DNA from: Acutalibacteraceae bacterium
Lineage (GTDB): Bacteria; Bacillota; Clostridia; Oscillospirales; Acutalibacteraceae
DNA length: 60,302 nucleotides
Direction: 5' to 3'
NCBI GenBank assembly: GCA_045221075.1
Contig: JBGUWL010000147.1
Location: 1-60,302, forward strand
Under the pieces are notes generated by a model. It saw nothing but the letters and a program-made list of their open reading frames with translations. It was not told the DNA's origin and did no database searches. A program made the translations under genes and the position numbers. Position 1 is the stretch's first letter. Each line of letters begins with the position of its first letter. This document shows positions 1,709 through 32,519 of the stretch, piece after piece.

Positions 1709-1855
1709 TGGAATCTCCTCCGTTCTTTGAGCAGGGCGCTCTTTTGGTGATACCATTATACCACAAAGGAGGAGCTTATGGAACCGAAAACAAAAAAGTT
1801 TACGGTTAGTTCATCACTTTTTTAAAATTTCCGGAACAAGAAAACAGCCGAAGGA

Positions 1856-5630: not shown

Positions 5631-5955
5631 GCGCTTTTCATAGTTTAGCGTGCCTGGTGCGTGACCGCGCTGGACGAGTGCCAACGCATTCAGCTCCATC
5701 ACTCCCGCCCGCGTCGTGAACCATAAAGGTTCACTTTGGCTGTTTTATTCCACGTCTTACCTTTCTTCGTATTGAGAATAAAGATGTTCATACAACACTT
5801 CCGTGTCCCGACCCGAGAAAAGCCGTATCCGCGGCACATGACTGCAGGATGCAGCTGAACCGGAGCGCGAAGCAGGGTGCGGCAGCTTGCCGCCGGTGAA
5901 CCTTTTGGCTTGTGCTTCATAGTATGGAATATAAGAAATAAAAGGAGGAATAATA

Positions 5956-14776: not shown

Positions 14777-14807
14777 CAAAAAACAGCCGCACCCGAAGGT
14801 GCGGCTG
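14777..14807 (-). terminator. Terminator of the giant pilin-like gene
   Basis: Minor-strand read: CAGCCGCACC-TTCG-GGTGCGGCTG followed by TTTTTT. It lies 22 nt after the stop. Confidence 0.75.
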
Positions 14808-14828
14808 AAGTCAGCACATAAAATATTA

Positions 14829-17800
14829 TCAGTTGCTGTACGTGGGTTTCTTAAGAGATCCGCCTGTGCCTGTACCGCCTTCGTTAGCAGTAGCACGGCC
14901 GATGTACTTAACATGGAGGAAGCTCTTCCAGTAAGTCTCGTCATAGAGATCCGCAATATACTTCGAGTTGTTGTTGCTCTTCTCAATGAGATACTTACCT
15001 TCACGGATACCGAAGTTATGGATCTTACCCATCTCATCACGGTACTTGACCGCGATGTCGGTCCTGAACTCTACAATCATACTGTTGGCAGTATTATCAC
15101 AGCTGTAGAGATAGAAGTGTGCTCTGTTAAGTGACTTTGAAGCACCGTCCAGTGTACCCTCAAATGCAAACTTGAACTCGGTTGCATACATCTTCACGGT
15201 AGGCTTGGTATAGAGAGGATCCGTAGAATCCCATCTGAAGCTAAGACCCTTGTTAGAGAAGAAGTCATAACGAATGGTAGAAGCTGCGAGGTTACCGCTG
15301 TCAGCAGTGATGTTGACATAGGATCCGTTGGGTGCAGTATTTGTACCGGACTGGAAGGTGAATCCGTTGTGCCATGTTGTAGAAGCGTCAAATACTTTTC
15401 CTGCTCCGATAGTCTTTCCATTAAGATCAGCCTCGCCCTCCACATAGTCACCTATGTTCTTGGACTGGGTGAAGTAGTTCTTTGCAGCCTGGCTGAACAG
15501 GTTGATCTTTCCGCTACCATATACAGGTGAGTCTTCATTCTGCTTAACATCGGCATTATCGAAGAAGTAGGAGCCTGCCTTGATAACATAGGAATCACCG
15601 CCAAAAAGTTCAACTGTTGCCGTGGTGTTGAACAGAAGAGTCATAGACTGATAGGTATTGCTGGAGCTCTTCTTCATGTTGTACATCTGGGTTTCAGAAG
15701 CAGTATCCTGAACAAAGATATCCGTTGTGATCTCACGGTAGTCAGAGGTTGTATTCTTTGACCAGTAGGGGTTGCTGGCAGTGTCAACATAAACCCATAC
15801 TTCATCCATATTGATCTCACTCTTGGACTTGCCGCAGGGTTTATAGGAGGAATCTGTACGGCTCTTTTCCAGGAACTCTACGTTGTAGATGGTGTCTACG
15901 CCGGGATGCAGGGTGATACAGGGATATCTTTCGGGGTTGTACTCTGTCAGCTTTTCTTCCTTGAAACCGGTAACAGAAGAAGAAAGGGTATAACGTACCT
16001 TGAAGTTAGAGCCTTCATCGACCTTCTTCTGGGCATCGTAGAATATCAGGATGATACCGCCTTCAGATTCTGTCTCAAGTCCGTCTATTGCTCTCTTAAG
16101 ATTATCAATTGCAGATATGAGCTGAGCGTTGGTGCTGTCGTTGAGGAAGACTTCTTCTGCAGCAGCCATCTTTCTCTTGAGAGACTCCATAGAGTCATTG
16201 GTGTACCTTCTTGACATAAGACCGCTGGCAAGGTATTCGGGATAATTTCCTCCGCCGCCGCCGTGGATCTTATGGTTAGTCATATAGCTATTACTCAGAG
16301 GAGCGGAAATAGCAGATCTGGCGTCTCCAAGCAAACTATACAGTGTGGTATAGTTTGTGAGCCTTGCTTCGATAGTGTTCAGCGCACTATATGCATCGCC
16401 CTCTGACCAGCTATCAACATTTGTGGTAATAAAGAATGTACCGCCTGATGTCTCCTTGATCGTTGAATAATTGCTGTACATATTAAGCAGACCATTGGAA
16501 TAGTAACGCTGTGAGGAAGAAGAAATACCGCCTTCATCGTTGTACTGACCGATAAGGTTGCAGCCATAGTAGCTGGAACGCAGCTTCTGAATGGCCTTTT
16601 TCAGTTTCATCTGGTCAGATTCAAATTCCACCCATGCACCCTTTGCGCCGTATTCGTCATCAGCCTCGGGATCAAAGAGAAGCATAGAACCTCCGCGGAG
16701 TGATGTTTTGAATTCCATCGGTGTGGATGTACCGCCTTCTGCGGGCTTATTAACATTAAAGGTAATGAAGGGAGAATTCTTCGAAATATTATTGAGATAA
16801 TAATAATTCGTATGACCGTATCTTGTAAGATGGTTGGTCATATTAACGGGCTGAGGATCACTGATGAAAGGTCCGTTTACCGTAGCGGTGAGGTTTGACC
16901 ATCCTTCGGGCAGTCTGAAATATACAGTCAGATTATCACCGATCTGATCCTCTTCCGGATCAAAGGTGTAGAGGTTGAGATTCTGATAGTGACCTGAGCC
17001 GCCGTTGTAGTTTGAAAGCATTTCAAGCCATACGTCTCCCACCGCATTCTTCACTATCTTGGTCTGGGTGGTCGGACTGGAGGGGTTCATACCGGTAAGG
17101 GTAAAGGTATAGGTTGCTTTTGAAGATACGGGGATCTTGAAGTCATACCAGTCAAAGTAGGGGCTGAGATCAGCAAGACCGAGACGTCCGTCGGACTCTT
17201 CGTTTCCGTTGGTACCGCCGAAGCGGTTGCCTGAACCGATTATATGTTTGTTGGAGTTCAGCTTGTTACCCTCGCCGTATACATCCATATAAGACTTATT
17301 CTGTACACGGACCTTGAATCCACCTACAAACGCCATCTTATAATCTGTTGCGTTATAGTCGGCTTCGTTAACTCCGGGCTGGCTATAGGTTCCGCCGCCT
17401 GTACCGCCGGTGCTGCCGCCGGTGCCTCCGGGATTGCCGCTGGGCCACGGCTGCATATCATGAGCGCTGCCCGATCCGCCGGTAAAGTAGTAGCCGTTGC
17501 CAACTGTAAAGGATATATCCTTTGTCTGCTTATCGGATGTACCGTTGTTTACGACAAATTTCTTTGCAGCAGCAGGAGGCTTGATCTTATAAACGGTCTG
17601 GTTATACTCATTGGTCTTATAAACTTCGGTAAGTTGATAGCCCGGGAAGGCCGCGCCTACTGTTGTGCCATCAAAGAAATAGATATGAAGGTTCTCAAAG
17701 TTGTAGTTGTTAGTAATGTAGATATAGTCATCTGCATAAGTTACATCCGGTGTAACGACCTGGTTGGCGATTTTTACAGAGCCGACGGTGTGTTTACCGC

Positions 17801-20800
17801 CTGACGTACCGTTTTTATAAAAATCAAACCCGTTCATCTTACCGTTTTCAATGTCAATATTTACTGTCTGCTTGCCGTTATTATTATTATTGAAGATCAC
17901 ATACTTTGCGCCTGAAGGAGGAATAACCTTATAGATTTTCTGTCCTTGATCGTTAGTCTTGAAAAATTCAACACTTCTGCCCGGCCAGTCATATCCGAAC
18001 TTATTTTCACCGTTCCAGAAATATGCTTTTACGGTTCCATACAGACCATAGCCGTCATCATTATCGGTAAAGTAGATATAGTCACCGTCTGCATACATAT
18101 CACCGATAAGAAGGTCATCTTCATTTGCAAGAGTGGGTTCGGGCTCGGGCTCGGGATCCTCCGGAGGAGCCTCTACCACGCCGTACTTGGGATAAACATC
18201 ATCGGTAGGAATAACTGTGGGAGCTTCGGTGCCGATATTTCTGTCAAGGAAGATATACTCACCGGGTTCAAGCTTTCCGACAGTATAGGGTACTATTTCA
18301 GGATCACCGCCTGTAGCAGAGCCTGTTACGGTAGATATCTTGAATTCGCTGTTCTTATACTCCTGAACATAAACATACTTGAATACAGTGTAGGGATCTT
18401 CAAATGTAGACATTACCAGTTCATCGTTGATCTCGCCTCTTAAAGCGTCACCCTGAAGTGTTGAATAAACGGTAACCATTTTTCCGAAGGAGACAACGTT
18501 AATGTCATTGATAACAGCCACAAGATTATCGTCTGCAACGTTGCTGAGTTTTATGGTTGAGCCGGCAGTAACGCCACTTGGAAGAATAACCTTTACGGCA
18601 ACACTGCTGTACAGTTCTTTACTGATATCCACATAACTGCACTTATATTCGGGCTTGCCCCATGATACGAAATCAGTATCATCAGCGGGAGTAGAGGTCA
18701 TTGAACCTTCGGGATAACGTTCAACGGTCATTCCGTTGGTACCAACGGAATTGTCAATGATCCAGAGTCTGACGCTCTTATTTTCAGTTTTGATCTGAGA
18801 GATAGTGCCCGCAGGCTTCTTAATGGTATAAGCCTTGATTGCAGCATCAAGTTTATCTGCAAGTGCATTAAGCTCTGACTGGGTGGTAACACCGCCTGAC
18901 TTGCCGCTTACTGCATCCGAAACAGCTTTGTCAAGTGCTGTAAAGGTATCTTCTGTGCAGTCGACCTTTTCGGGATTCTCCGCAGTAGGCAGAAGGGTTC
19001 TTGCCTGGTCGATGAGAGGATCAATAACAGATGTATCAAGTGACACAACGGCATGCTCAGTCAGTGCAGTATACTTGTCCTGAAGATTATTCTTTGCGTT
19101 ATCGATAGCTGTCTGACTTGTAAACTTCAGATTCTTTGCAGCTCTTGCCTCATCGTAAGCAGTCTTGAATTCTGAAAGATAAGGCTCCTCAAAATCTGAA
19201 GAGGTTTTGTTATAGAACTCGAAAGTAAGGTCAAGGAGAGCCTTCAGATCGTTCCTGTAGATCCTTGAGTTGTTCATCAACTGAAGATCCTGGGACAGAG
19301 CTGTACATACGCTGTTTACTTCCTCGATCGTAGTACTGGAGTAATCAGCCTGAATCGTCTTTGCACGCTGGTATGCGGAGGGCTCAGGAGTACCTTCGCC
19401 TATAAATTTCTTGTAGGTATCATAGTCGAAGGAACCGTTTGCTTCCATTGCGGTCACGGTATTGTCACCGGATACAACAAGGCTGTTGAGCCATGTAAGA
19501 TCATCACCGGTAACACCGCGGGGTACGAGCTTGTGTTCACCTGTACCGTTAATAATGTCAAGGATGACTTTTTCAGCTGCATAATACTTTTCATCAGCCT
19601 GCTGGATCCTCAGGGAATCTGTAGGACCGGGCTGATTGACAATGAAGTTCTTATCATCAAGAAGAGCACGAGCGGCAATAATCGCATCGGTCAGATACTG
19701 GAAAGACTCGGGTGTATACTCGTTGGGGTCATAACGTCCTGCCTCTGAACAGGTTTTGTTCAGAGCGTTACGGCCGCTGGTGGAGTTAAGACCAACATCA
19801 CCATAGCGGACACTGGGTGTTGCCTTTGTGGTGAAGTCGGCGATCTTTGCATGGATGGTTACATATTCATCCTTGCTTCTGTTTTTGCCAAGAGATGTCA
19901 TTGCATCGTTCTCAGAGCTGTATTTCTCAAGGCTGGAGCCGTTAAAAACAAAGAAGAACTCTTTGTGCTCTGAGCTGTTCTCAATACCGTAAGCGGACTT
20001 TGCGGATCCCACGGCGGAAAATGTAATATTGAAGTCTTTGTTTGTTTCTATATTTGCTGCCCACCAACCGCAGCCTTCGTACTCCATGGTAATGGGGCCG
20101 GCAGTTTTGTTGCCGGAATGGAGGAAGCTCTGGCCTGTGATTGCAGATCCGTCTGCATTGGCATAAGAAACAGAGGGAGCCGCAATGGAGGGTGTAACTG
20201 CATTGTCATCGATTCCCTTCATACGGAAGTGTACGGTTGTCTTGGGGTTCTTTACATATACAAGAACGGTGTCTTCAAGACCCTTCTTTCCGTCCCAACC
20301 GGGGCCCTTGAAATACTGGGTGTAATAGGTTCCGTTAGGTCCGCCGGACTTGGGTGTGTCAAAGAACTCAAAGTAGATGTTTCTGTCGCTGGAGTCAAGG
20401 TACCACAGATGGAACATTTCGTTGGTCTGTGAGTCATAGACGTTCCATGCGCCGCCCGTTGTTCCGGGAGGACAGAGAAGTGAGCCCTGACGTGCGAAAA
20501 TGATATTGAACCACGGAACCAGTCCGGGTTTAACGAAATACTCACCTGTGAACCAGCCGTTACCCATATCGGCAAGAATACCGTTAGGACCCTGCTGGAG
20601 CTTTTTGGATTCGTCATCGGTGAGACGCCACTCTGCATTAGGCTTTACTGCCTCGCTGGAGGTATCATCGTTGAGCTTTTGGACCTCATTTCTGCTTTTT
20701 ATAACAGAGTCATAGAAATAGCTGTTGTCGCCGTTGCTTTCATCGTAATCTCTGTAAACACCGTTATCCACATCATCACGGTATGTCCAGATGTAGTAAG

Positions 20801-21380
20801 TAAGCTCATAGTCCATGCCTGTGGGCTTTTTAACGTTAAGGGTAATACTCGGATCATATCCGTCGCTGCCCTTGCCGCGTGATCCCGGGGGGATCGTAAG
20901 TCTGTTGGGGCCTGAGGAACCAACAGTAAAGGAGACGGAGAGACGAGCCATCTTATTCTTGTTGCCATAGGCATCGGAATAGCGGCTGTATGCCGTCATG
21001 TGAAGTGTGGCAGGATTGGAGTTCACGGCCTGAACGAACTCAACATGAACGTATGTTACAGCGTTTTTGGTTTCGTTAACGTTCTTGGTAATATCAGCGC
21101 CCTGTGAAGTGGTACCGCTGGGATCTTTCATTACCATGTACTCAACAGAAATGGTTGAATAATCATCGACATTTGTCGAATAGTAAGACCGGGCATATTC
21201 CAACGCGCTCTTTACATTCATATAAGCCTGTCTTCCGCTGATATCAACCGATGTTGTCGACATACTGTTAAGTGCGATAAACAGAAGCGAACTTGATATC
21301 AGTATCAGAAAGCAGCTTATTGCAATGGCAAGCGGCAAGGAAAAACCCTTTTTACTGTTTTTTACAACAGTATTCTGCAT
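14829..21380 (-). CDS. Giant (2183-aa) modular pilin-like protein; putative pilus-tip adhesin with CBM25/26-like and FIVAR-like modules
   Basis: The N-terminus KKG|FSLPLAIAISCFLILISSSLLFIAL is a prepilin-type leader plus hydrophobic helix, with Leu instead of Glu at +5. It starts 25 nt after the second minor pilin gene. Internal modules are described in the findings. Confidence 0.8.
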   Translation of the reverse strand: MQNTVVKNSKKGFSLPLAIAISCFLILISSSLLFIALNSMSTTSVDISGRQAYMNVKSALEYARSYYSTNVDDYSTISVEYMVMKDPSGTTSQGADITKNVNETKNAVTYVHVEFVQAVNSNPATLHMTAYSRYSDAYGNKNKMARLSVSFTVGSSGPNRLTIPPGSRGKGSDGYDPSITLNVKKPTGMDYELTYYIWTYRDDVDNGVYRDYDESNGDNSYFYDSVIKSRNEVQKLNDDTSSEAVKPNAEWRLTDDESKKLQQGPNGILADMGNGWFTGEYFVKPGLVPWFNIIFARQGSLLCPPGTTGGAWNVYDSQTNEMFHLWYLDSSDRNIYFEFFDTPKSGGPNGTYYTQYFKGPGWDGKKGLEDTVLVYVKNPKTTVHFRMKGIDDNAVTPSIAAPSVSYANADGSAITGQSFLHSGNKTAGPITMEYEGCGWWAANIETNKDFNITFSAVGSAKSAYGIENSSEHKEFFFVFNGSSLEKYSSENDAMTSLGKNRSKDEYVTIHAKIADFTTKATPSVRYGDVGLNSTSGRNALNKTCSEAGRYDPNEYTPESFQYLTDAIIAARALLDDKNFIVNQPGPTDSLRIQQADEKYYAAEKVILDIINGTGEHKLVPRGVTGDDLTWLNSLVVSGDNTVTAMEANGSFDYDTYKKFIGEGTPEPSAYQRAKTIQADYSSTTIEEVNSVCTALSQDLQLMNNSRIYRNDLKALLDLTFEFYNKTSSDFEEPYLSEFKTAYDEARAAKNLKFTSQTAIDNAKNNLQDKYTALTEHAVVSLDTSVIDPLIDQARTLLPTAENPEKVDCTEDTFTALDKAVSDAVSGKSGGVTTQSELNALADKLDAAIKAYTIKKPAGTISQIKTENKSVRLWIIDNSVGTNGMTVERYPEGSMTSTPADDTDFVSWGKPEYKCSYVDISKELYSSVAVKVILPSGVTAGSTIKLSNVADDNLVAVINDINVVSFGKMVTVYSTLQGDALRGEINDELVMSTFEDPYTVFKYVYVQEYKNSEFKISTVTGSATGGDPEIVPYTVGKLEPGEYIFLDRNIGTEAPTVIPTDDVYPKYGVVEAPPEDPEPEPEPTLANEDDLLIGDMYADGDYIYFTDNDDGYGLYGTVKAYFWNGENKFGYDWPGRSVEFFKTNDQGQKIYKVIPPSGAKYVIFNNNNNGKQTVNIDIENGKMNGFDFYKNGTSGGKHTVGSVKIANQVVTPDVTYADDYIYITNNYNFENLHIYFFDGTTVGAAFPGYQLTEVYKTNEYNQTVYKIKPPAAAKKFVVNNGTSDKQTKDISFTVGNGYYFTGGSGSAHDMQPWPSGNPGGTGGSTGGTGGGTYSQPGVNEADYNATDYKMAFVGGFKVRVQNKSYMDVYGEGNKLNSNKHIIGSGNRFGGTNGNEESDGRLGLADLSPYFDWYDFKIPVSSKATYTFTLTGMNPSSPTTQTKIVKNAVGDVWLEMLSNYNGGSGHYQNLNLYTFDPEEDQIGDNLTVYFRLPEGWSNLTATVNGPFISDPQPVNMTNHLTRYGHTNYYYLNNISKNSPFITFNVNKPAEGGTSTPMEFKTSLRGGSMLLFDPEADDEYGAKGAWVEFESDQMKLKKAIQKLRSSYYGCNLIGQYNDEGGISSSSQRYYSNGLLNMYSNYSTIKETSGGTFFITTNVDSWSEGDAYSALNTIEARLTNYTTLYSLLGDARSAISAPLSNSYMTNHKIHGGGGGNYPEYLASGLMSRRYTNDSMESLKRKMAAAEEVFLNDSTNAQLISAIDNLKRAIDGLETESEGGIILIFYDAQKKVDEGSNFKVRYTLSSSVTGFKEEKLTEYNPERYPCITLHPGVDTIYNVEFLEKSRTDSSYKPCGKSKSEINMDEVWVYVDTASNPYWSKNTTSDYREITTDIFVQDTASETQMYNMKKSSSNTYQSMTLLFNTTATVELFGGDSYVIKAGSYFFDNADVKQNEDSPVYGSGKINLFSQAAKNYFTQSKNIGDYVEGEADLNGKTIGAGKVFDASTTWHNGFTFQSGTNTAPNGSYVNITADSGNLAASTIRYDFFSNKGLSFRWDSTDPLYTKPTVKMYATEFKFAFEGTLDGASKSLNRAHFYLYSCDNTANSMIVEFRTDIAVKYRDEMGKIHNFGIREGKYLIEKSNNNSKYIADLYDETYWKSFLHVKYIGRATANEGGTGTGGSLKKPTYSN

Positions 21381-21405
21381 TCATAAAACCCCTTTCTTTA
21401 TGATT

Positions 21406-22014
21406 TTACTGAACAAAAGCTATAGCCTTTGTTGTACTGTCATTCTCGATCTTACATACATCACCGACATCATCAAACGAAGTGTTTATCTGGGTCATAG
21501 GAGTATCGGAATCCGCATTGTTCATAACGATGGTTCCGTCAAGCTTATAACCCTCGTTCATCTCGATCACATAATCGACGTACATGAAGCACTTTTCGGA
21601 CAACGAATCATCCTTCTGAGGCTTATGCTTCTTGACCTGTACCTGAACACTCTTTGCCTTATGATAGGAGATCGTCGTTACAACGGGAGGCTGTCCGATA
21701 GCGGTAACCTCACTTCTCACGGTCTTCAATGTTCCGTCGTTATCAAAATAAATGTAATACGCTGAGACATCGTTCAGCGGAACGGAACTGGAATTGACAA
21801 GGGACACTGAAGCGCCTACCTTTGATGCGCTGAGAAGAAAATCCTCTATTTCAAGGGCGTTATCCTGTTCGGTTGAGGTTGTCTGTGCAGTGGAGTAATT
21901 CTTGATAGCCTGCGCCACCATGCCGACTCCCAGTCCGGCAACAATACTGAGCACGCCTATGGTAACTACAAGCTCTACGAGAGTAAAACCACTCTTAGAT
22001 CTGAATTTGTTCAT
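21406..22014 (-). CDS. Minor pilin (prepilin-type N-terminal cleavage/methylation domain)
   Basis: The N-terminus MNKFRSKSG|FTLVELVVTIGVLSIVAG has the canonical G/F-x-x-x-E motif. Confidence 0.8.
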   Translation of the reverse strand: MNKFRSKSGFTLVELVVTIGVLSIVAGLGVGMVAQAIKNYSTAQTTSTEQDNALEIEDFLLSASKVGASVSLVNSSSVPLNDVSAYYIYFDNDGTLKTVRSEVTAIGQPPVVTTISYHKAKSVQVQVKKHKPQKDDSLSEKCFMYVDYVIEMNEGYKLDGTIVMNNADSDTPMTQINTSFDDVGDVCKIENDSTTKAIAFVQ

Positions 22015-22032
22015 GATTTACTACCCCCTTCA

Positions 22033-22578
22033 TCAGCCCGGATCCTGGTGCTCATAGGGAATGAACGAATGGTTCACCAAGGATCCCCTTGAACTGTAAA
22101 CATAAGACTGAACATAGATTCCCTTTATGGTGTACTGTTTTGCGCCCTTCTGCACCTTGCTGGATGCATCAAGATCGATGGTGTACTGTGTCTCTACTCC
22201 TGCAGCAGGGAATACATTCTTGTCATAGTAAAGAACAGTGCTGTCGAAAGTCTTTGCAGCAGCGTGTACAGCATTGCCCGGATCCGAATTCGGGCTCTTG
22301 TTGCTGGCAGCGCCGAAGAAATACTCCTGAGCCTCTGCCTTATCGTAGAATCCCAGCTCGCTGATGCTCTGAAACAGAAGTTCATTCAGCGAACCGCCTT
22401 CAACAGCGCTTTTGTTCACGTCTGCATTATAGAGAGTTGTCGAGTAGCCGTTTGTCATTGCGCTGAGAGTTGATCCAAAAACAATGACAATGATAGTTAT
22501 GCCGACAACAAGCTCTACCAGAGACATACCTTTTTTGGAACGCAGCTTCGGGATCTTTTGCCGTAATCTTTTTTTCAT
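22033..22578 (-). CDS. Minor pilin (prepilin-type N-terminal cleavage/methylation domain)
   Basis: The N-terminus ...LRSKKG|MSLVELVVGITIIVIVFG has Glu5 present. Confidence 0.8.
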   Translation of the reverse strand: MKKRLRQKIPKLRSKKGMSLVELVVGITIIVIVFGSTLSAMTNGYSTTLYNADVNKSAVEGGSLNELLFQSISELGFYDKAEAQEYFFGAASNKSPNSDPGNAVHAAAKTFDSTVLYYDKNVFPAAGVETQYTIDLDASSKVQKGAKQYTIKGIYVQSYVYSSRGSLVNHSFIPYEHQDPG

Positions 22579-22644
22579 TTACTCGTCCTCCTTTTGATAG
22601 TTTGCGAAGTAACCCACTCTTCGACTTATATTTATTCATATATT

Positions 22645-22672
22645 ATTATACTATAAATAGAAATCAATTCAA
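22645..22672 (-). promoter_or_regulatory. Candidate sigma-A promoter of the minor-pilin/giant-adhesin operon
   Basis: Minus strand reads TTGAAT-N16-TATAAT, about 60 nt upstream of the ATG at 22578. The AT-rich context raises the false-positive risk. Confidence 0.45.
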
Positions 22673-22849
22673 TATTTTTCGAGTATCTTTTTCTACAAAC
22701 ATTAACTCAGATTTTTGTGCATCTTTCCGTATGTTAAGAATGGGGTTGTTATTATCAACACCTATCAACAGCTATTTATGTATGTATTATATATAATTTC
22801 AGGCATTTTCATTATTTGTACAATTTATTACCCATCGTTAACAAAAAGT

Positions 22850-22881
22850 AAAAAAAGAGACCGGACAAACGCCCGGTCTCT
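22850..22881 (-). terminator. Strong terminator after pilC
   Basis: Minus strand reads GAGACCGG-GCGTTTGT-CCGGTCTC followed by TTTTTT. Confidence 0.8.
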
Positions 22882-22894
22882 ATGAAAATCAAAA

Positions 22895-24151: not shown

Positions 24152-24165
24152 AGCTTTTCACTCCC

Positions 24166-25212: not shown

Positions 25213-25327
25213 TTAAATCTACCCCATTCGTTTTAAAATTTGAATAACTCAGGAACACGCCGCAGAACAGGCACAGCAGCCGGCGATAGCGACAGCCGGA
25301 CTGACCTGACTCAGCCGGACCTGAATA

Positions 25328-27034
25328 TCAGTCTGTGTTATTGATGGTCATATCAACAAACTCTTCATAGGAGGTAAGTCCCTGAAGAACGTTTCGTCTT
25401 ACGTTTTCCTTCATCGGTATCATGCCCTCTTTTAAGGCCAACTCACGGATCTCGTCAGTACTCTTGTTTTCCGTAATGGCACGCTTAAGAGTGGTTGTGA
25501 GCAGCATGATCTCATGAACGGCGATACGTCCCTTATAACCCTTTTTGTTGCATTTCTCGCAGCCTTTTCTGCGATAGAGGGTGATATCCTCATTCTGATC
25601 AAGGTTAAGAGCGATCCGCTCATTCTGATCCGGCGTGTAAGCCTCTTTACATTCAACGCAGAGACGACGCGCCAGTTTCTGAGCGATAATACCGAGAAGA
25701 GCAGAGGAAACCATGTAAGGTTCAATTCCCATATCTACAAGACGCGCCACAGAGCTGGGGGCGTCGTAGGTATGCAGTGTTGAAAGAACCAAGTGACCTG
25801 TGATAGCTGCCTGTACCGCAATACCGGCGGTCTCACCGTCACGGATCTCACCGACCATGATGATATCGGGGTCCTGACGAAGAATGCTTCGCAGGGCTGC
25901 CGCAAAGGTCATGCCGGCTTTTTCGTTGGTTTGAACCTGGGTGATTCCTTCCTGCAGCATTTCGACAGGGTCCTCAACCGTGATGATATTGATATCTTCA
26001 CTTTTGACCTCATTGAGAGCCGTATAAAGGGTCGTCGATTTACCGGAACCGGTAGCACCGGTTACAAGGATGATTCCACGGTTACTTTTGATAAGATGGT
26101 TGAATTTTTCAAGGTTCTCCGGCAGGAAGCCTATGCTTTCCTTTTTAAGCTCCATGCCGAGAGAGGTGGTAATACGCATAACGATCTTCTCACCATATAC
26201 GCTGGGGAGAACCGAAATACGGAAGTCTATTTCTTTTCCTGCAACACGGTAGTTAATACGACCGTCCTGAGGAATACGTTTTTCTGCGATGTTCATGTTA
26301 CCGATGAACTTGATACGGGATGTTACCGAGGGGATGAGCTCAGGGCTTGTCTCCATATAGATCTGCAGCTTACCGTCGATACGGAAGCGGATCCTCAGGC
26401 ATTTTTCCATAGGCTCCACATGAATATCGGAGCATTTTGCAAAGATAGCCTCTTCGATCATGGTATTTACAAAACGGATGATAGGCTGGTCATTACCGTT
26501 GGCATCCTGTTTTGCAGCCTCTTCAGCCTCCTGCTGAGCCTTGGATTTACCGCCCTTTGACTCAAGGAATTCCTTTGCGTCATCGATAGCCTTCTGGGCG
26601 GCATAAAGCTCACGGAGCTTTGCCGAGATCTTTGAAGGTTCGGCGATGACCGGCTGGATCTTCAACTTAGTGGCAATGGATATATCCTTGATTCCTTTAT
26701 AGTTAAGGGGATCGCCGATGGCAACGGTGAGGATACGTCCTTCCTGTTCGATAGGAACGACCATATTCTTCTGAGCCATATCCTCAGGGATAAGGCCTCC
26801 CAGTTCATCGGGAATAGTAACTGAATCAAGATCAATGTAAGGCATAAAGAGCTGTTTTTCCAGCGCTCTGCACACCTGCTGCTCGGTTACTATCTTGTCT
26901 TCAATAAGAATGTCGGCAATACGGCGTTTTTCATCAGAGCTACGCTGTTTTTCCAGCACAGCCTCAAGCTGTTCTTCCGTAATGTCGCCAGAATTGATCA
27001 AAATTTGTCCGATTTTCAAGTTGCCGGCTTTCAT
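25328..27034 (-). CDS. pilB: Type IV pilus assembly ATPase PilB (GspE family) with an MshEN-like N-domain
   Basis: 568 aa with AAGGAG SD. Motifs are Walker A GATGSGKST and the C-terminal tetracysteine CVECK...CEKC. The N-terminal tandem 24-aa motifs are described in the findings. Confidence 0.9.
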   Translation of the reverse strand: MKAGNLKIGQILINSGDITEEQLEAVLEKQRSSDEKRRIADILIEDKIVTEQQVCRALEKQLFMPYIDLDSVTIPDELGGLIPEDMAQKNMVVPIEQEGRILTVAIGDPLNYKGIKDISIATKLKIQPVIAEPSKISAKLRELYAAQKAIDDAKEFLESKGGKSKAQQEAEEAAKQDANGNDQPIIRFVNTMIEEAIFAKCSDIHVEPMEKCLRIRFRIDGKLQIYMETSPELIPSVTSRIKFIGNMNIAEKRIPQDGRINYRVAGKEIDFRISVLPSVYGEKIVMRITTSLGMELKKESIGFLPENLEKFNHLIKSNRGIILVTGATGSGKSTTLYTALNEVKSEDINIITVEDPVEMLQEGITQVQTNEKAGMTFAAALRSILRQDPDIIMVGEIRDGETAGIAVQAAITGHLVLSTLHTYDAPSSVARLVDMGIEPYMVSSALLGIIAQKLARRLCVECKEAYTPDQNERIALNLDQNEDITLYRRKGCEKCNKKGYKGRIAVHEIMLLTTTLKRAITENKSTDEIRELALKEGMIPMKENVRRNVLQGLTSYEEFVDMTINNTD

Positions 27035-27058
27035 GTCTTCAGCTCCTTACCCGTTTGA

Positions 27059-28000
27059 TTAGAATAGTTTCAGATACATTTCAACTAAGCCAAAAATAAA
27101 GTCATAAAAACAAACATAGCATATCAGCGAAAATGTGATATAAGGACCAAAGGCGAGGTACGAACCGCCCGAGGTCTCCTCCTGTGTATCCGCAGAAGTC
27201 TGCTCTCCGGCATCAGTCTCCGCTTCCACGGCAGCGGCAGCATCCTTCACGGAAACGCTTGCTTTTGTGTCACCGTCAGCGGTACCCTCTGGGTCAGCAT
27301 CATCAGCCGCAGACTGATCCTGCTGAGGAGCTTTCCTGCCGATTATGCGGACCACGATCAGTATCACCACAAAACATATCATTGCGCTTATCATAGATAT
27401 GATAAACGACAGTATGGTTCCGGGAAAACCCGTTGCAATACCGACGGCCGCAAAGAGCTTTACGTCTCCGAAGCCCATTCCGCCTCGCTTGTATACTAAC
27501 ATTCCGATAAGGTCAATAAATATCATGACCCCGGCGCCAATAGCGGCACCCGCCAGAGGTGACCACCAGGCGGTATGGAGTATGCCGTAGCCCCTTGCGA
27601 TGTCATAAATGCTTATGGCAAGGGCAAGCAATCCCAGTGCTATGGTGAACTGGTCCGGAATGATGGTATATTTGATATCACAGATAGCTATCATAAGGGA
27701 TACTATTATCATCAGTGAGAAAACCACAAAATAGATATCGTAGCCCTTGTTGAACTGCAGCCTGCAGCAAACCAGGCAGACGGCAGTCACTATGGACATA
27801 ACAATACCCGATCCGGCATATCTGACACGGTTTCCGGAGAGAAGCTCCGGCGAAGGGGTCTCGTTGTAATCGCACAGCCATTTGGCCGGGATACGGTTGA
27901 TGACCCTGTAGTACAGCCATGTCAGGAGCACGCCGGACAGGACACAGACGGCAGTCCATATAACGCCGGCTGTGCTTGTCAGGTATTCAAAAGGCTGCAT
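27059..28000 (-). CDS. pilD: Prepilin peptidase PilD (peptidase A24)
   Basis: Polytopic membrane protein. Aspartate motifs are IIPDQF and GMGFGDVKL, with C-terminal AFGPYI. It contains a 58-aa acidic insertion. Confidence 0.85.
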   Translation of the reverse strand: MQPFEYLTSTAGVIWTAVCVLSGVLLTWLYYRVINRIPAKWLCDYNETPSPELLSGNRVRYAGSGIVMSIVTAVCLVCCRLQFNKGYDIYFVVFSLMIIVSLMIAICDIKYTIIPDQFTIALGLLALAISIYDIARGYGILHTAWWSPLAGAAIGAGVMIFIDLIGMLVYKRGGMGFGDVKLFAAVGIATGFPGTILSFIISMISAMICFVVILIVVRIIGRKAPQQDQSAADDADPEGTADGDTKASVSVKDAAAAVEAETDAGEQTSADTQEETSGGSYLAFGPYITFSLICYVCFYDFIFGLVEMYLKLF

Positions 28001-28021
28001 AAATATCAGTCCTCTGATTCA

Positions 28022-28702
28022 TCAGGTTGAGCTTTGGGAAGAAGATACAGCCGCCTCAAGATCAACCATCTCAAAGTAATACAGACTCATGGAAACCGTA
28101 TAGTCATACTTTGCGGTCTTGCTGGTTGTGGTAGCAACACTGGTCACTGAATTATCTTCTCCGGAAGTGGTGCCGGCAGCGGAATTGCTGGCGATGTAAG
28201 GCTCTGCATCGATTCCGTTGATGTAGTATGCACCGTCGGCCTTCAGCTCAAGATAATCGAGAGACTTCTTAAGGTCTTCCTTTGTTCCCGAGAATCTGAA
28301 GTTGATGCTGGTTGAGAAAAGACGTCCGCCTTCAACGGTAGTTCTTCCAAGAGCGTCCTCGTTACCTGTGCTGATAGACAGCGAGGTGATCTCGAACTTG
28401 AGATTCTTGAGGATGGATCTGATCTCGTTAGGAGTCTTGGTAGCGTTTGAATAGAGGATGGGGTTCTTTTTCTGATATTCTTCCATCATGCTGGCGATAT
28501 TGCTCTCAACAGTGGCAGAATTGTCCAGATAAGAATTGTAGTAATTGATCTTGCTTGTGGCAGAAGCATGGTTGTCCTGATAACCGTCATAATTCTGTAT
28601 AAAGGGTACCTGCACAGCGATCAGAAAGATGATACTCATTACCAGTATGACCGCTATTGCAATAATAAAGCCTGAAATTTTGAGCTGCTTTTTATTATTC
28701 AT
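28022..28702 (-). CDS. PilO-like bitopic pilus assembly protein
   Basis: GGAGGT SD. It has a short cytoplasmic N-terminus, one TM (ISGFIIAIAVILVMSIIFLIAV) and a ~170-aa outside domain. The call rests on position between pilM/N and pilD, with no motif-level support. Confidence 0.5.
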   Translation of the reverse strand: MNNKKQLKISGFIIAIAVILVMSIIFLIAVQVPFIQNYDGYQDNHASATSKINYYNSYLDNSATVESNIASMMEEYQKKNPILYSNATKTPNEIRSILKNLKFEITSLSISTGNEDALGRTTVEGGRLFSTSINFRFSGTKEDLKKSLDYLELKADGAYYINGIDAEPYIASNSAAGTTSGEDNSVTSVATTTSKTAKYDYTVSMSLYYFEMVDLEAAVSSSQSST

Positions 28703-28785
28703 TATTGTTTACCTCCGTCAAGAATTGATCTTTGCTTTAGATCCTTTGGGCTTTCCGATGTGAAACCGTTCCGTCAGTCAGTCCG

Positions 28786-30636
28786 TCAGGATGCAGAACT
28801 CTCAGCGGAAGACGCAGACGAAGCATCCGAGGTCTGTGAAGTCTCGGTGGTGCCAGCAGCAGTACCGTTTGCAGCTGCTCCGCCGCTCTGGAGCTTCTCC
28901 TCCTGAGCCTTCTGCTCTGCATCTGACAGCTTGGCTGTTTCAAAGCCCTTTTCGGTCACGTTGAGCTGCATCTCAAGATCGTATGTGATGTTCTTGGCCT
29001 CGGGGTTGAGGTCGTCGTTCTTTGCGATTGTGAGCTCCTCGCTGACGCTGAAGAATCCGGCGCTTTCGATCTTATCCTTGAGAGCAACAAACGAGTCGTA
29101 GTTTTTGACATTTGTTTCGACATCAACGGAAACGAATTCTTTTTCGGTCTCCGTATTTGTATCCTTGATGAGGGAAATGCTTTTGGTTACCAGTGTCTTT
29201 TCGACCACTTCTTTGTAGATATGGTCAACGATCACGGACATTTTATATTTTGTCGTGGGAAGTGTTTCAAGGTTGGTAGCCATATTGGTAGTCAGCTCTG
29301 TAGCCGTCTTTTCTCTTGCAATAAGATCCTCGGCATACTTGAAACGCTCGTCCTTAAGGGTATTTTCGTCATTGTTCTGCTGGATCTGAAGAGCGATCCA
29401 CCAGGCAGAGATGGCGATCATCCAGACTGCTGCAACGAAGCCCAAGGCTCCGGCCACGAGATTGCCCACCTTGCTGCCGCTGTCCTTAGCCATTGCGGAA
29501 AGGATGTTTGTCTGGCCCTGAAGCAGGTTAGCTTCGCCCAGAGGCATGGTAAGAATGCCGTTAAGAGTGATGAAGGAAACGGCGTCAAATCCACGCTGTG
29601 AAGCGGACTGGGTAACTCTCGGGGGCTGAGACTGACCGGAGAAGAGGTTGGTTACCTTCTCCATAGGAGCGGTCAGACCTACCTGACGGCAGAACGCGCT
29701 GATGCTGGGCAGCTTTGCCAGGGCATCGCAGAGAACAATCTGGTCGATGTCAAGACGCATGGTAGAGATGACCATTCTGAGGTTTCTGAGTATCTCGCCG
29801 GCAGCGCTTTCCAGCATTGACATGGTCTGCTTTCTGGTTGTTGCGTTATTGCACTTGTTACATACGCCAAGACCCTCCTGACGGATAAGGTCGATAGCGC
29901 CCAGCTTGCTGATACCGAACTCAAGCATGAGCATTTCGGCAACATCCTCAAGCACACTGGAGAAGGACTGCTGGAAAACGGGAGCGCCGTTGTGAAGAAC
30001 CACCAGTCTTGTTGCGGCAAAGTCCATGCTGATAAGAGCGATGGCTCTTGTTGCGGAGTTAAGATCGGCCTTTGCGGTAAAGAGCATACCTGCGATAGGC
30101 GGAGTGACCTTGATGATCTTAAGGCCGGCTGCAGAGAAGTTTGCGCGGATATCGGTAAGAAGTCCGGTATTCATTGCAAACAGGGATGCGGAAACATCCT
30201 CGGTCTTGTTGGCCTTGCCGTACTGCTGGCCGTATTCAAAGTTAAGAATAGTGTACTTTTCAACTTCGGCATGAAGAACAGCCTCTGCTTCAACACGGGC
30301 GTATGTAAGCAGCAGTTTGTCTTTTGATTCTACATGATGCTTGTATTCCTTGGTGATAAGGATGTCTTCATCCTCGATACAAAGGAAGATTTCGCCGAGA
30401 TCCATGTTTACGCTTTCGGCACAGCGTTTTACAAAGGCTGCGAGCTCCTCGGACTTTTCAAAGGGACGCTCCTTAAGGGATTCGTTCAATTCAAAGATCT
30501 GAGGAACACTGAAGTTGGTAGGCACTGCGCCTCCCCTTTTTTTGCTGGACATGCCGCCCTCGGGCTTATCGTACTCGGCAGGAGTAAGGATAAGCAGGCT
30601 TCGTGTCAGCTGCATTACAGTTGCTACACTTTTCAT
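28786..30636 (-). CDS. pilM: PilM-like actin-fold assembly protein fused to a PilN-like TM/outside segment with a Ser/Ala/Thr-rich tail
   Basis: The central region (ALISMDFAATRLVVLHNGAPVF...; DALAKLPSISAFCRQVGL) resembles PilM. A TM follows (VGNLVAGALGFVAAVWMIAISAWWIAL), then a coiled/outside region. The start is ambiguous (30642 GTG, 30636 ATG or 30552 ATG). Confidence 0.65.
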   Translation of the reverse strand: MKSVATVMQLTRSLLILTPAEYDKPEGGMSSKKRGGAVPTNFSVPQIFELNESLKERPFEKSEELAAFVKRCAESVNMDLGEIFLCIEDEDILITKEYKHHVESKDKLLLTYARVEAEAVLHAEVEKYTILNFEYGQQYGKANKTEDVSASLFAMNTGLLTDIRANFSAAGLKIIKVTPPIAGMLFTAKADLNSATRAIALISMDFAATRLVVLHNGAPVFQQSFSSVLEDVAEMLMLEFGISKLGAIDLIRQEGLGVCNKCNNATTRKQTMSMLESAAGEILRNLRMVISTMRLDIDQIVLCDALAKLPSISAFCRQVGLTAPMEKVTNLFSGQSQPPRVTQSASQRGFDAVSFITLNGILTMPLGEANLLQGQTNILSAMAKDSGSKVGNLVAGALGFVAAVWMIAISAWWIALQIQQNNDENTLKDERFKYAEDLIAREKTATELTTNMATNLETLPTTKYKMSVIVDHIYKEVVEKTLVTKSISLIKDTNTETEKEFVSVDVETNVKNYDSFVALKDKIESAGFFSVSEELTIAKNDDLNPEAKNITYDLEMQLNVTEKGFETAKLSDAEQKAQEEKLQSGGAAANGTAAGTTETSQTSDASSASSAESSAS

Positions 30637-30913
30637 AAACACACCACACTCTTAAAAATTTTGTACGATTGTTGTTGTTTCATCCGACAAATATCAGAAC
30701 CGCATCATGCTCTGCAAAAGCCGCAGGACATAGGTGCAGTTATAATATCCCTTTTGTTATCTTATCACAAAAAAATATATATTTCAATAATTAATTTTTG
30801 ATTCTTGGTATTTTGTGCATATAGTTAGTTTTTAAAGCTATTATTTATGCAATAAGACACCTGACTATGTTTTTTCCCACAAACAGACACGGACCTTTCT
30901 GTTTTGTCTTGTT

Positions 30914-30952
30914 CAAAAAAACAAAGACCCGGAAATCAATTCCGGGCCTTTG
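30914..30952 (-). terminator. Terminator after pilA1
   Basis: Minus strand reads CAAAGGCCCGGA-ATTGATT-TCCGGGTCTTTG followed by TTTTTTT. Confidence 0.75.
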
Positions 30953-30981
30953 TATGTAGCTGTTAAATAATCCGTCAGGAA

Positions 30982-31464
30982 TTATTTGTAACCAAGATCA
31001 GACATCTTTGTGGTCAGAGCAACTACGTTAGTAGCAGCTGCGGGCTTGCCGCTGTCGTCCTTACCATAGATTGTGCCGGTGTTCTTGTCATAAACGAAGT
31101 CGCCAACCTTGCCCTTAAGGGTATCAAGACCTGCATAGGTGATAGCGTCGGTAACAGTAAGAGCCAGAGCCTTGGTCTTCTTTGCAGAAGCGGAAGCATT
31201 GGCAGGCGGCAGACCGGTGAAGGCCTTGGGTGAGCTGGAGTTCAGAGTGCCTGAAACAACTTCAGCGTACATGTCCTTGCATGCGTTACTGAGTGAAGAA
31301 GCGTCTGACTTCTGCTGTGATTCGTTAGCGCTGTTGATGATACCGATAACTGCGGGGATAGCGATTGCAGCCAGGATACCGAGGATAGCGATAACAACTA
31401 CGAGTTCAACGAGGGTGAAACCTTTTTTGCTCTGCTTAGCGAGCAGTTTCTGCTGGAGAGTCAT
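30982..31464 (-). CDS. pilA: Type IV major pilin (paralog 1)
   Basis: The N-terminus MTLQQKLLAKQSKKG|FTLVELVVVIAILGILAAIAIPAV is a canonical class III signal peptide. 160 aa, monocistronic, with its own promoter and terminator. Confidence 0.88.
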   Translation of the reverse strand: MTLQQKLLAKQSKKGFTLVELVVVIAILGILAAIAIPAVIGIINSANESQQKSDASSLSNACKDMYAEVVSGTLNSSSPKAFTGLPPANASASAKKTKALALTVTDAITYAGLDTLKGKVGDFVYDKNTGTIYGKDDSGKPAAATNVVALTTKMSDLGYK

Positions 31465-31548
31465 GATGAATTACCTCTTTCTTTAATAAATTTTTTTTTC
31501 GAACCCGATCCTCTGAAGGGTGGAGCACCGTGTTCATTTGTTGATTAT

Positions 31549-31577
31549 ATATTAACTCTTTATTAACAAAATGTCAA
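31549..31577 (-). promoter_or_regulatory. Candidate promoter of pilA1
   Basis: Minus strand reads TTGACA-N17-TAATAT, preceded by A-tract-rich DNA. The predicted leader is about 80 nt. Confidence 0.55.
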
Positions 31578-31934
31578 TACTTTTTTTCGAAATTTTTTCA
31601 AATTTTTAGTAAAACATAAGCTTGTATTTTTGTGCACACTGCCAAGTGTTTGGCTGCGAGCAGTTAAACATTACCCCTTTTTAGTTTGTATTGCACCACA
31701 CGTCGATGAATTTTTGTTTTATATGACGAATTCTATTTATGAATCATTTGTTAACTGTTAATATCGTGTTCATATTTAATCGATTTTTCTTTAGAAATTT
31801 TCAATATTTTTTTAAAATTTCCTTCCCGATTTCTGTTCAGAAACCCTTTTGGCAGCATTTCCCTTCAAAAATCAGGTTCACATTTACGCAAAATCACCGG
31901 TCTTTACCATCCCGGAAACCGGACCGGTTCCCGT

Positions 31935-31962
31935 CAAAAAAGGAGAGCCGCCCGGCTCTCCT
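31935..31962 (-). terminator. Terminator after pilA2
   Basis: Minus strand reads GGAGAGCCG-GGC-GGCTCTCC followed by TTTTTT. Confidence 0.75.
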
Positions 31963-31970
31963 CTGCAGAT

Positions 31971-32432
31971 TCACATTATTTCCGAAAGCTTTGTACTCGC
32001 CGTGATAAGCTTGTTTGAAGCGGTCTTCTGCTGAACGGTTCCTGTGCTGTCATAGCCGTAATTGTTCTGTCCCGACTGGATCTGGGTTTTGATCTTGTCC
32101 AGTCCCGCAAACTCGCAGGCATTGATCACCGTCGCATTGTCAGCCGCCGCTTTTCTCTGGGAGGCAGAGGCATTCGGGCCGGGAAGTCCGCTCTGTGATG
32201 AACCCTGGGGGGATGAGGAATTAACCGATCCGGCAACGACTGCGGCATAATAGTCCTTGCAGGCCATATTGAGCGCCGAAGCGTCACTCTTCTCTGCGGT
32301 CTCCGATGAATGGCCCAGTATGTTGTATACTACCGGCACAGCGATTGCCGCAAGTATGCCAAGGATGGCAATAACCACCACAAGCTCAACCAATGTAAAA
32401 CCCTTTTTGCTGCGATACTTACTTTTGTTCAT
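31971..32432 (-). CDS. pilA: Type IV major pilin (paralog 2)
   Basis: Start moved to ATG 32432 (AGGAGGG 7 nt upstream). The N-terminus is MNKSKYRSKKG|FTLVELVVVIAILGILAAIAVPVV. It shares the SDAS.L..ACKD.YA.VV.G..NSSSP and NASAS motifs with paralog 1. Confidence 0.88.
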   Translation of the reverse strand: MNKSKYRSKKGFTLVELVVVIAILGILAAIAVPVVYNILGHSSETAEKSDASALNMACKDYYAAVVAGSVNSSSPQGSSQSGLPGPNASASQRKAAADNATVINACEFAGLDKIKTQIQSGQNNYGYDSTGTVQQKTASNKLITASTKLSEIM

Positions 32433-32491
32433 ATTAAGCCCTCCTGTCATAATCTCACTTCATAACGCCGTCAACTGCCCCTTTTTATATT

Positions 32492-32519
32492 ATTGTATCT
32501 CATATTTCCGTTTTGTCAA
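32492..32519 (-). promoter_or_regulatory. Candidate promoter of pilA2
   Basis: Minus strand reads TTGACA-N16-TACAAT. The predicted leader is about 50 nt. Confidence 0.5.

Follow-up and report, generated by a model that had tools for sequence, protein, structure and literature searches.

A type IV pilus locus of an Acutalibacteraceae bacterium that ends in the gene for a giant, pilin-like candidate starch adhesin

Here, we describe a type IV pilus (T4P) locus whose last gene encodes a protein of 2183 residues that joins a prepilin-like N-terminus to starch-binding modules of carbohydrate-binding module (CBM) family 26. The locus occupies the minus strand from 14784 to 32519 of a 60,302-nt window, which is the whole stretch of DNA analyzed (contig JBGUWL010000147.1 of assembly GCA_045221075.1, from an Acutalibacteraceae bacterium), and the coordinates of all open reading frames (ORFs), profile matches and signals given below are positions within this window. 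In our judgement, this giant protein is probably a hugely expanded cap pilin of the PilK/GspK-like kind that presents its starch-binding modules on a retractile pilus.

The locus contains 11 ORFs (14829..32450), and its overall G+C content is 46.5%. An earlier description of this DNA, made from the sequence alone (hereafter, the initial annotation), agrees with our ORF calls in its gene list, its placement of the genes on the minus strand and its coordinates. Eight of the 11 products were assigned to the expected pilus families by Pfam and NCBIfam profile searches, specifically the prepilin peptidase PilD, the extension ATPase PilB, the retraction ATPase PilT, the platform protein PilC, two major pilins and two minor pilins (Table 1). 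The match of PilT to TIGR01420 lies above the curated cutoff and fits a retractile machine, consistent with the initial proposal that pilT implies a retractable fibre. As judged from its sequence, the locus is best read as that of a monoderm bacterium with a retractile type IVa-like pilus.

Both major pilins begin with class III signal peptides and possess the glutamate at position 5 (Glu5), reading ...RSKKG|FTLVE in paralogue 1 and ...QSKKG|FTLVE in paralogue 2. Together with the N_methyl matches, their identity of 50% bears out the earlier suggestion of two paralogous major pilins. The minor pilins encoded before the giant gene had likewise been predicted to contain Glu5, and the N_methyl matches as well as a reading of the N-termini (...RSKKG|MSLVE in the 181-aa protein and ...RSKSG|FTLVE in the 202-aa protein) uphold this.

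The N-terminal module of the giant protein and its genomic linkage

The giant protein starts with a short charged leader that ends in Gly (MQNTVVKNSKKG|FSLPLAIAISCFLILISSSLLFIAL), such that the putative processing site reads SKKG|FSLPLAIAIS, and this terminal SKKG is the one seen in the canonical pilins of the locus. A composite motif consisting of [KR]xG|[FLIV][ST]LPxA, ~21 hydrophobic residues and RQAYLN.[KR]SAL is present in 86/86 full-length homologues recovered by homology search (2000–2900 aa, 27–48% identity). Glu5 is absent, the positions +4 and +5 being occupied by Pro and Leu. Alignment of residues 1–157 with the family of the adjacent minor pilin using hhalign placed the cleavage sites in register (probability 72%, E 3.3e-5), and a control comparison of the two minor-pilin families with each other gave 98%. 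With respect to fold, AlphaFold2 (AF2) predicts that residues 1–157 form a 57-residue helix (14–70) followed by a five-stranded β-sheet (79–152), with a predicted local distance difference test score (pLDDT) of 82.2 and a predicted template modeling score (pTM) of 0.68. A longer AF2 model (residues 1–556) repeats this topology of helix plus sheet.

Relatives of the N-terminal module were sought in an exhaustive hidden Markov model (HMM) search that covered 1.84 billion representatives. This search returned ~60 representative clusters of giants along with shorter relatives of 500–950 aa, which match the N-terminal module only, all lack Glu5 and carry no annotation beyond 'hypothetical protein'. 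Two of these relatives, of 536 and 826 aa, are encoded in T4P loci of the same architecture, each beside two N_methyl minor pilins, with one gene directly after pilC and the other divergent beside the machinery. Their location indicates that the module is part of a pilus component that is conserved in this order and carries no annotation, and the giants would so represent an expanded branch of that family. A homology search with a broadened N-terminal alignment yielded 10 short unannotated fragments only.

Within the window, the giant gene is closely packed translationally behind the two minor pilins. The gap between the minor pilins is 18 nt and that between the second minor pilin and the giant gene is 25 nt; each contains a ribosome-binding site, and neither a promoter nor a terminator was found in these two gaps. 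An unrelated promoter of its own, which the initial annotation had named as an observation that would count against its reading, is therefore not what we find for the giant ORF, located as it is 25 nt behind the second minor pilin.

In terms of synteny, tblastn searches with the pilus proteins of the window against 61 related loci revealed that the linkage is shared by ~30 of the 46 informative ones. The full order of 618-aa gene, 226-aa gene (both described below), pilD, pilB, pilT, pilC, minor pilin, minor pilin and giant gene is found in 25 loci, and five others lie on contigs that are too short but consistent with it. A further four loci have the minor pilins and giant gene with no machinery within 8–10 kb, and orthologues of the 181-aa minor pilin precede the giant gene in 30 or more loci. 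The giant gene stands alone in 12 loci with at least 7 kb of upstream sequence and in four with 2–5 kb, and no ORF with a prepilin motif was found near these stand-alone genes. In a neighbor-joining tree built on the N-terminal 556 residues of the giant proteins, all stand-alone genes fall together in a single derived clade that lies within the linked ones, which indicates that linkage is ancestral; the existence of this clade also means that linkage to the pilus is not obligatory. The initial annotation had asked whether the giant gene follows the two minor pilins in other genomes. In most informative loci it does, together with the machinery, and the proposition that linkage to pilus genes never occurs among its homologues is clearly contradicted.

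Some loci depart from this picture in ways worth recording. L064 (8444..19042) and L065 follow the gene order of the window, with two major pilin genes, those of the machinery and a pair of minor pilin genes, and have no giant gene. In L064, Rrf2 and MurT/GatD genes are found where the giant gene would be, and this locus may come from a lineage whose giant gene moved elsewhere. Within the stand-alone clade, the opposite strand of L004 (803..9063) encodes, immediately upstream of the giant gene, an ABC ATPase and, three times in tandem, an FtsX-type permease paired with a ~420-aa protein. In L005 (16566..19008), also of this clade, a protein of >1000 aa combining CBM48, alpha-amylase and MucBP domains is encoded a few kb downstream.

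A number of observations weigh against a pilin identity for the giant protein. Pfam searches gave no match of the protein to N_methyl, PilX_N or T2SSK, and no Pfam pilin profile matched any of 21 N-terminal modules at E-values up to 1. The PDB contains no sequence match to the giant protein or to a profile of its N-terminal module, and Foldseek searches of the PDB with the AF2 models of residues 1–556 and 1–157 returned no solved pilin and no significant match, the best E-values (0.0027 and 0.042) both belonging to unrelated folds. Pro at +4 and Leu at +5 are unusual, and the hhalign support is moderate, at 72% for the adjacent minor pilin and 27% for the other one. To these points are added the clade of 12–16 loci whose giant gene has no pilus gene within 7–10 kb, and the size of a 240-kDa multidomain protein that would have to pass the cell wall on a pilus tip. 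Thus, of the initial description of a 6.5-kb pilin-like ORF without Glu5, the ORF, the absence of Glu5 and the prepilin-like N-terminus were recovered, and a match to a pilin profile was not.

The failed profile tests and the stand-alone clade are also what sustains the main rival explanation, namely that the giant protein is an ordinary surface starch adhesin with an uncleaved N-terminal signal-anchor helix, encoded as a co-regulated neighbor and never part of the pilus. This explanation is favored by the missing matches to pilin profiles and folds, by the absence of Glu5 and by the one clade whose giant gene is far from any pilus gene. The sole hydrophobic segment of the giant protein is N-terminal and there is no C-terminal anchor, an arrangement equally expected of a signal-anchor protein. 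Nonetheless, we regard this explanation as unlikely. It agrees poorly with the invariant Gly before the hydrophobic stretch and the SKKG leader shared with canonical pilins, with the alignment in register with a prepilin cleavage site, and with the predicted 57-residue helix that is continued, in the manner of pilins, by a small β-sheet head. It is also at odds with the shorter relatives of the N-terminal module that lie inside pilus loci beside two minor pilins, in one case directly after pilC, and with the movement of the minor pilin–minor pilin–giant trio as a unit. From this convergent, indirect evidence, we infer that the giant protein is probably a pilin.

Starch-binding modules within a conserved scaffold

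After removal of the 12-residue leader, the giant protein has a computed mass of ~240 kDa and an isoelectric point of 4.9. A conservation map across its homologues separates a conserved segment (residues 1–880), a variable cassette (approximately 880–1340) and a conserved C-terminal part (1340–2183); Table 1 lists the individual modules. The β-rich region that follows the pilin-like module contains the invariant motifs HLWY and YEGCGWW, and the composition of the stalk behind it favors helix. Precomputed matches to FIVAR (PF07554) exist in 11 homologues, the place of these matches in the proteins not being given. One Pro/Glu-rich and one Gly-rich linker flank the cassette of the window protein; across the giant family, cassettes measure between 393 and 792 aa. 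The C-terminal region gave no match in Pfam or the PDB, and no internal repeats were detected in the giant protein by self-BLAST.

CBM26 is the sole Pfam family recognized above its gathering score in the giant protein, which as a whole scores 43.8 bits against PF16738. The first of two modules in the cassette exceeds the gathering score, and the second, scored alone, does not; the previous ascription of carbohydrate-binding modules to this ORF is supported. Among the other family members, 17 of 85 have precomputed CBM26 matches, and CBM26-like scores of 13–28 bits were obtained for five of 10 homologue cassettes scanned, one of them from the stand-alone clade. An iterated CBM26-like HMM grew from 24 to 35, 48 and 76 proteins and reached into the conserved C-terminal region, a result that is suggestive only, given the risk of drift. 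Local Foldseek matches to PulA and to CBM20 or starch-binding β-sandwiches (E ~0.2) are too weak to serve as evidence. The combination of a constant carrier with a variable cassette points to a tuning of binding specificity.

Since ~90% of the length of the giant ORF is without a Pfam domain, one might suspect an artefact of assembly or annotation, or a decaying pseudogene without function. We consider this extremely improbable, as the 6.5-kb reading frame is uninterrupted, the 86 full-length homologues share dozens of invariant residues across both conserved halves, and the giants fall into ~60 representative clusters. The closest relative from a species-representative genome is 45% identical. 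Only two of the 86 homologues are named by source, both from metagenome-assembled genomes (MAGs; Acutalibacteraceae and Clostridia), and none of the homologues found is an annotated member of the giant family. The loci taken from species-representative genomes are all from uncultured MAGs (55/55), obtained from the rumen (RUG), the gut of rabbits (Lapin) and comparable sources and labeled Ruminococcus sp., Clostridia or Acutalibacteraceae. Extending our reading from the window to this group, the proposal would be that giant Glu5-less cap pilins (~1650–3300 aa) of uncultured rumen and gut Acutalibacteraceae place exchangeable carbohydrate-binding cassettes at the tip of a retractile pilus, and here we see the chances of being right or wrong as evenly balanced.

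A candidate tip complex and its relation to known systems

Pilus tip complexes are capped by a subunit that lacks Glu5 (PMC10191384). In type II secretion, this position is taken by GspK, the largest pseudopilin (PMC7248040), and PilU, PilV and PilK of Clostridioides difficile probably form a tip complex as well (PMC9556784). The presence of two small pilins with Glu5 and one large pilin-like protein without it reproduces this pattern, and it is on this basis that we favor a cap position for the giant protein.

Building from this pattern, a possible course of assembly can be outlined. PilD would cut the giant protein behind Gly12 and thereby remove the leader, and the hydrophobic N-terminal helix of the giant protein would keep it in the membrane beside the two Glu5-containing minor pilins. 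By analogy with GspI–GspJ–GspK and with C. difficile PilU/PilV/PilK, the three proteins could then form a tip-initiation complex on PilC. Under the rule for cap pilins (PMC10191384), a subunit without Glu5 can only be the first and topmost one, and this would be the place of the giant protein. PilB would subsequently polymerize the two major pilins underneath, pushing the 240-kDa protein outward at the tip, where the CBM26 modules on their helical stalk might bind alpha-glucan in the form of starch granules. Finally, retraction by PilT would draw cell and substrate together. What the analysis shows is the gene content and order, the families of PilD, PilB, PilT, PilC and the small pilins, the CBM26 module, the conserved prepilin-like N-terminus and the synteny; that PilD cuts the leader, that the protein enters the pilus at its tip, that it binds starch in vivo and that retraction has the role outlined here are inferences.

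A different use of the same genes can be imagined, in which a machine resembling type II secretion forms a short pseudopilus for the export of amylolytic proteins, among them the giant protein, which would then be a substrate or a released 'scout' adhesin like CofJ or the tapirins and no structural subunit of the tip. There is a precedent in the polysaccharide-binding tapirins, which are encoded directly downstream of a T4P locus (bioRxiv 10.1101/614800), and the stand-alone clade shows that the giant protein can be encoded independently. We nevertheless judge this scenario quite improbable, as it fits poorly with a PilT that is present and 93–100% identical across related loci, as expected for a retractile pilus, with two strongly signalled major pilin genes, and with an N-terminus of the giant protein that is prepilin-like and not of the Sec type.

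Returning to the cap-pilin interpretation, the likeness to GspK, to PilK/PilX and to C. difficile PilK lies in the absence of Glu5, in the size of the giant protein as the largest among its minor pilins, and in the location of its gene beside those of two small Glu5-containing minor pilins in a pilus operon. By analogy, the giant protein would be assembled first and cap the filament (PMC10191384, PMC7248040, PMC9556784), and its 500–950-aa relatives hold a like operon position in Oscillospirales-type loci. At 2183 aa, however, it is four to six times larger than these proteins, and it possesses in addition CBM26 modules, a stalk of helical character and a conserved C-terminal region of 830 aa. 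It also has no detectable similarity to T2SSK (PF03934) or PilX_N (PF14341), such that the likeness to GspK and PilX is functional and positional only, and that to C. difficile PilK is drawn from published descriptions.

Adhesion modules grafted onto pilins are known from Streptococcus sanguinis, whose modular pilins PilB (with a vWA module) and PilC (a glycan-binding protein with a lectin module) provide a close concept; more than 1200 modular-pilin architectures have been found through IPR012902 (PMC8179133, PMC9934059). In common with these proteins, the giant protein would combine an N-terminal pilin carrier with adhesion modules in a retractile T4P of a monoderm bacterium. S. sanguinis PilB and PilC are, however, proteins of ~50 kDa with class III signal peptides of the canonical kind, seen by IPR012902, and one grafted module, whereas the giant protein is ~240 kDa, Glu5-less and multi-modular, has a variable cassette, and would be directed at dietary starch instead of host ligands. 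Since it is invisible to IPR012902, the published survey of modular pilins would have missed its family.

Ruminococcus albus (GP25/CbpC) and Caldicellulosiruptor offer a second point of comparison, both being Firmicutes that degrade fibre and attach to insoluble polysaccharides by means of T4P loci. In R. albus, it is the major pilin that has been implicated in binding cellulose. In Caldicellulosiruptor, tapirin genes follow the T4P locus, the relation of tapirin and pilus being unknown, and prepilin-type genes are listed apart from those of the tapirins (bioRxiv 10.1101/614800). The giant protein differs from both systems in its pilin-like N-terminus, its recognizable CBM26 and starch as the likely substrate. 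With PilY1/PilC of diderm type IVa pili it would share the role of a large modular tip adhesin with variable effectors on a conserved carrier (PMC8179133, PMC13533445). PilY1 is not a pilin, however, but has a Sec signal and docks on minor pilins through a C-terminal β-propeller, whereas in the giant protein the pilin-like N-terminus is the carrier. No β-propeller of the Neisseria_PilC/IPR008707 type was found in the giant protein with Pfam, and an identity as PilY1 was rejected on this ground.

In terms of novelty, our literature searches found modular pilins, none of them of this size or with CBM26, in agreement with the initial statement that no such tip subunit had been described. Modular pilins as such, adhesion to polysaccharides by T4P (R. 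albus) and tapirin genes beside a T4P locus were already known. What appears new is a size ~5 times that of described modular pilins, a Glu5-less cap-type carrier that escapes the standard signature, the insertion of a variable CBM cassette in a scaffold that is itself conserved, a likely target in starch, and a family that, according to source labels, is limited to MAGs of uncultured bacteria from gut and rumen.

The common view of type IV pili is one of thin fibres of 15-kDa subunits, and this locus bears on how such simple fibres gain specific functions. If our interpretation is correct, the giant proteins would be the largest pilins known and part of a motor-driven 'grappling hook' for starch granules, carrying the modular-pilin principle to roughly fivefold larger proteins and from host adhesion to the capture of dietary polymers. 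They would also offer a testable route by which abundant but uncultured, starch-associated Clostridia of the rumen and gut attach to granules, and a means of attachment by pili that would complement the amylosome found in the related Ruminococcus bromii; pili are not mentioned in a recent study of the R. bromii amylosome. That N_methyl signatures miss this class of probable tip subunits means that surveys of pilin diversity are incomplete.

Pilus machinery, transcription signals and neighboring genes

The features of the locus are collected in Table 1. Promoter-like sites are scored as matches out of 12 in a consensus scan.

Table 1. Genes, protein modules and transcription signals of the pilus locus (positions within the window)
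Feature	Position	Strand	Evidence
Promoter-like site upstream of pilin 1, TTGACA-16-TACAAT	32492..32519	-	11/12
Major pilin paralogue 1, 159 aa	31971..32450	-	N_methyl E 5e-10, 39 bits; TIGR02532
Pilin 1 terminator, just past stop codon, GGAGAGCC-GGGC-GGCTCTCC TTTTTT	31935..31965	-	Read by eye
Promoter-like site upstream of pilin 2	31577..31549	-	10/12
Major pilin paralogue 2, 160 aa	30982..31464	-	N_methyl E 9e-10, 38 bits
Pilin 2 terminator, 14-bp stem hairpin + T-run	30953..30921	-	Automatic scan
Unit 3 promoter-like sites, best 9/12	near 30787..30742	-	Consensus scan
616-aa protein in PilM/N position	28786..30636	-	Gene position and topology
226-aa bitopic protein in PilO position	28022..28702	-	Gene position and topology
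Prepilin peptidase PilD	27059..28000	-	Peptidase_A24 E 3.8e-15, 56.6 bits vs cutoff 26.5, residues 96-210
Extension ATPase PilB	25328..27034	-	T2SSE E 1.2e-133, 445.8 bits; MshEN E 3.3e-20, 72.3 bits
Retraction ATPase PilT	24166..25212	-	TIGR01420 PilT/PilU family, 442.3 bits vs cutoff 319.1
Platform protein PilC	22895..24151	-	T2SSF x2, E 5.5e-54, 181.9 bits
pilC terminator, strong hairpin + T-run, directly 3' of pilC	22881..22856	-	Automatic scan
pilC-to-minor-pilin spacer, 316 bp, 29% GC	22579..22894	-	Holds pilC terminator and TTGAAT-16-TATAAT
Promoter-like site before first minor pilin, TTGAAT-16-TATAAT	22672..22645	-	10/12
Minor pilin, 181 aa	22033..22578	-	N_methyl E 1.8e-4
Minor pilin, 202 aa	21406..22014	-	N_methyl E 2.7e-6
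Giant pilin-like adhesin gene, 2183 aa, last gene of locus	14829..21380	-	ORF calling
Pilin-like module, residues 1-157	20910..21380	-	Motif conservation, hhalign, AF2
Conserved β-rich region, residues ~178-500	19881..20849	-	Conservation; AF2 strands pLDDT 70-90
Helical FIVAR-like stalk, residues ~534-860	18801..19781	-	Weak FIVAR, 22 bits, under gathering score
Variable central cassette, residues 857-1352	17325..18812	-	Homologue coverage ~85 falling to ~22 of 85
CBM26 module 1, residues 1114-1175	17856..18041	-	PF16738 34.2 bits vs gathering 28.1, E 2.9e-8
CBM26-like module 2, residues 1220-1290	17511..17723	-	PF16738 23.7 bits, E 5.2e-5, sub-threshold alone
Conserved C-terminal region, residues 1353-2183	14832..17324	-	Covered by 83/85 homologues
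Giant-gene terminator, strong hairpin + T-run	14807..14784	-	Automatic scan

With respect to the machinery, PilB scores 591 bits against TIGR02538, under the equivalog cutoff of 675, and its N-terminal MshEN domain matches the cyclic di-GMP (c-di-GMP) motif NF053729 (51 bits against a cutoff of 38). An Rfam scan of the window detected no c-di-GMP riboswitch upstream of the pilin genes, and Rfam and tRNA scans found no Rfam families or tRNAs anywhere in it. Control by c-di-GMP, if present, would act via the PilB ATPase, in contrast to C. difficile pilA1, where a riboswitch is involved. In PilD, the match is limited to the A24 peptidase domain (residues 96–210), and no N-terminal methyltransferase-type domain was reported, which leaves N-methylation of the pilins uncertain here. 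The possibility that the locus encodes a Com (competence) pilus was considered separately and rejected, as PilT is present and PilB is full length.

The two genes between the pilins and pilD are less readily placed. The first is a 618-aa ORF when read from an upstream GTG at 30642 and encodes 616 aa from the conserved ATG at 30636; its product is predicted to have ~390 cytoplasmic residues, one transmembrane segment (approximately residues 395–420, numbered from the GTG) and ~200 external residues. The 226-aa protein is predicted to have an N-terminal transmembrane segment. Searches of Pfam, NCBIfam and the PDB with the single sequences revealed no homology of either ORF to PilM, PilN or PilO, and neither profiles built from 18 orthologues nor scans of each orthologue matched PilM_2, PilN or PilO; the profiles gave no match in the PDB either. 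A profile of the 618-aa ORF recovered 205 database homologues, every one of them unannotated. Thus, for unit 3 of the initial annotation, the profiles confirm pilD, pilB, pilT and pilC, and they give no match for the genes called pilM/N and pilO-like.

Both genes keep their slot between the pilins and pilD in all full loci examined, and the same slot is occupied in distant loci (L062, 6305..7927 and 5757..6308; L063, 1658..3373 and 3386..3991). Across loci, the pair appears lineage-specific, with sizes of ~540–640 aa and ~180–250 aa. We therefore treat the two proteins as analogues of PilM/N/O by position rather than as members of those families, and unrecognized proteins may make up the membrane sub-complex in the pili of this monoderm group. 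Should this hold, that part of the machine would be as unexplored as its tip.

In terms of transcription, the division of the locus into four units is a prediction. The top-scoring promoters of the minus strand sit in the AT-rich spacers before pilin 1, pilin 2 and the first minor pilin, and promoters and terminators lie where the initial annotation put them; the hairpin and T-run of pilin 1, read by eye, are absent from the list of the automatic terminator scan. Promoters were thus recovered for the two major pilins and for unit 4, which comprises the minor pilins and the giant gene, and a comparable one was not found for unit 3. The AT-rich spacer of 316 bp with TTGAAT-N16-TATAAT is as described before, and related loci (L001, L003 and L006) have a spacer of 300–1200 bp at the corresponding point. 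On the signals found, the four-unit model is plausible. Two further sites scoring 10/12 on the minus strand lie inside coding sequence, one within the giant gene (16051..16078) and the other where the 618-aa gene ends, just upstream of the gene for the 226-aa protein (28694..28721), and may each be a chance match or an internal promoter.

Beyond the pilus locus, the window is rich in alpha-glucan functions, as noted initially. A 243-aa ORF at 1025..1756 (minus strand) has a single CBM26 match of 33 bits, over the gathering score, which marks its product as a second, independent predicted starch-binding protein. A 1295-aa ORF at 36337..40224 (minus strand) encodes a fusion in which both the GH77 4-alpha-glucanotransferase (MalQ) and the glycogen/maltodextrin phosphorylase are complete, an unusual pairing of maltodextrin-processing enzymes in one polypeptide. 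These nearby genes would fit a starch lifestyle. The 328-aa ORF at 34501..35487 (minus strand) has no Pfam match. At 7024..8799 (minus strand) lies the gene for a 591-aa protein whose only match is an N-terminal zinc ribbon, and a similar 575-aa zinc-ribbon gene is found near the giant gene in L001.

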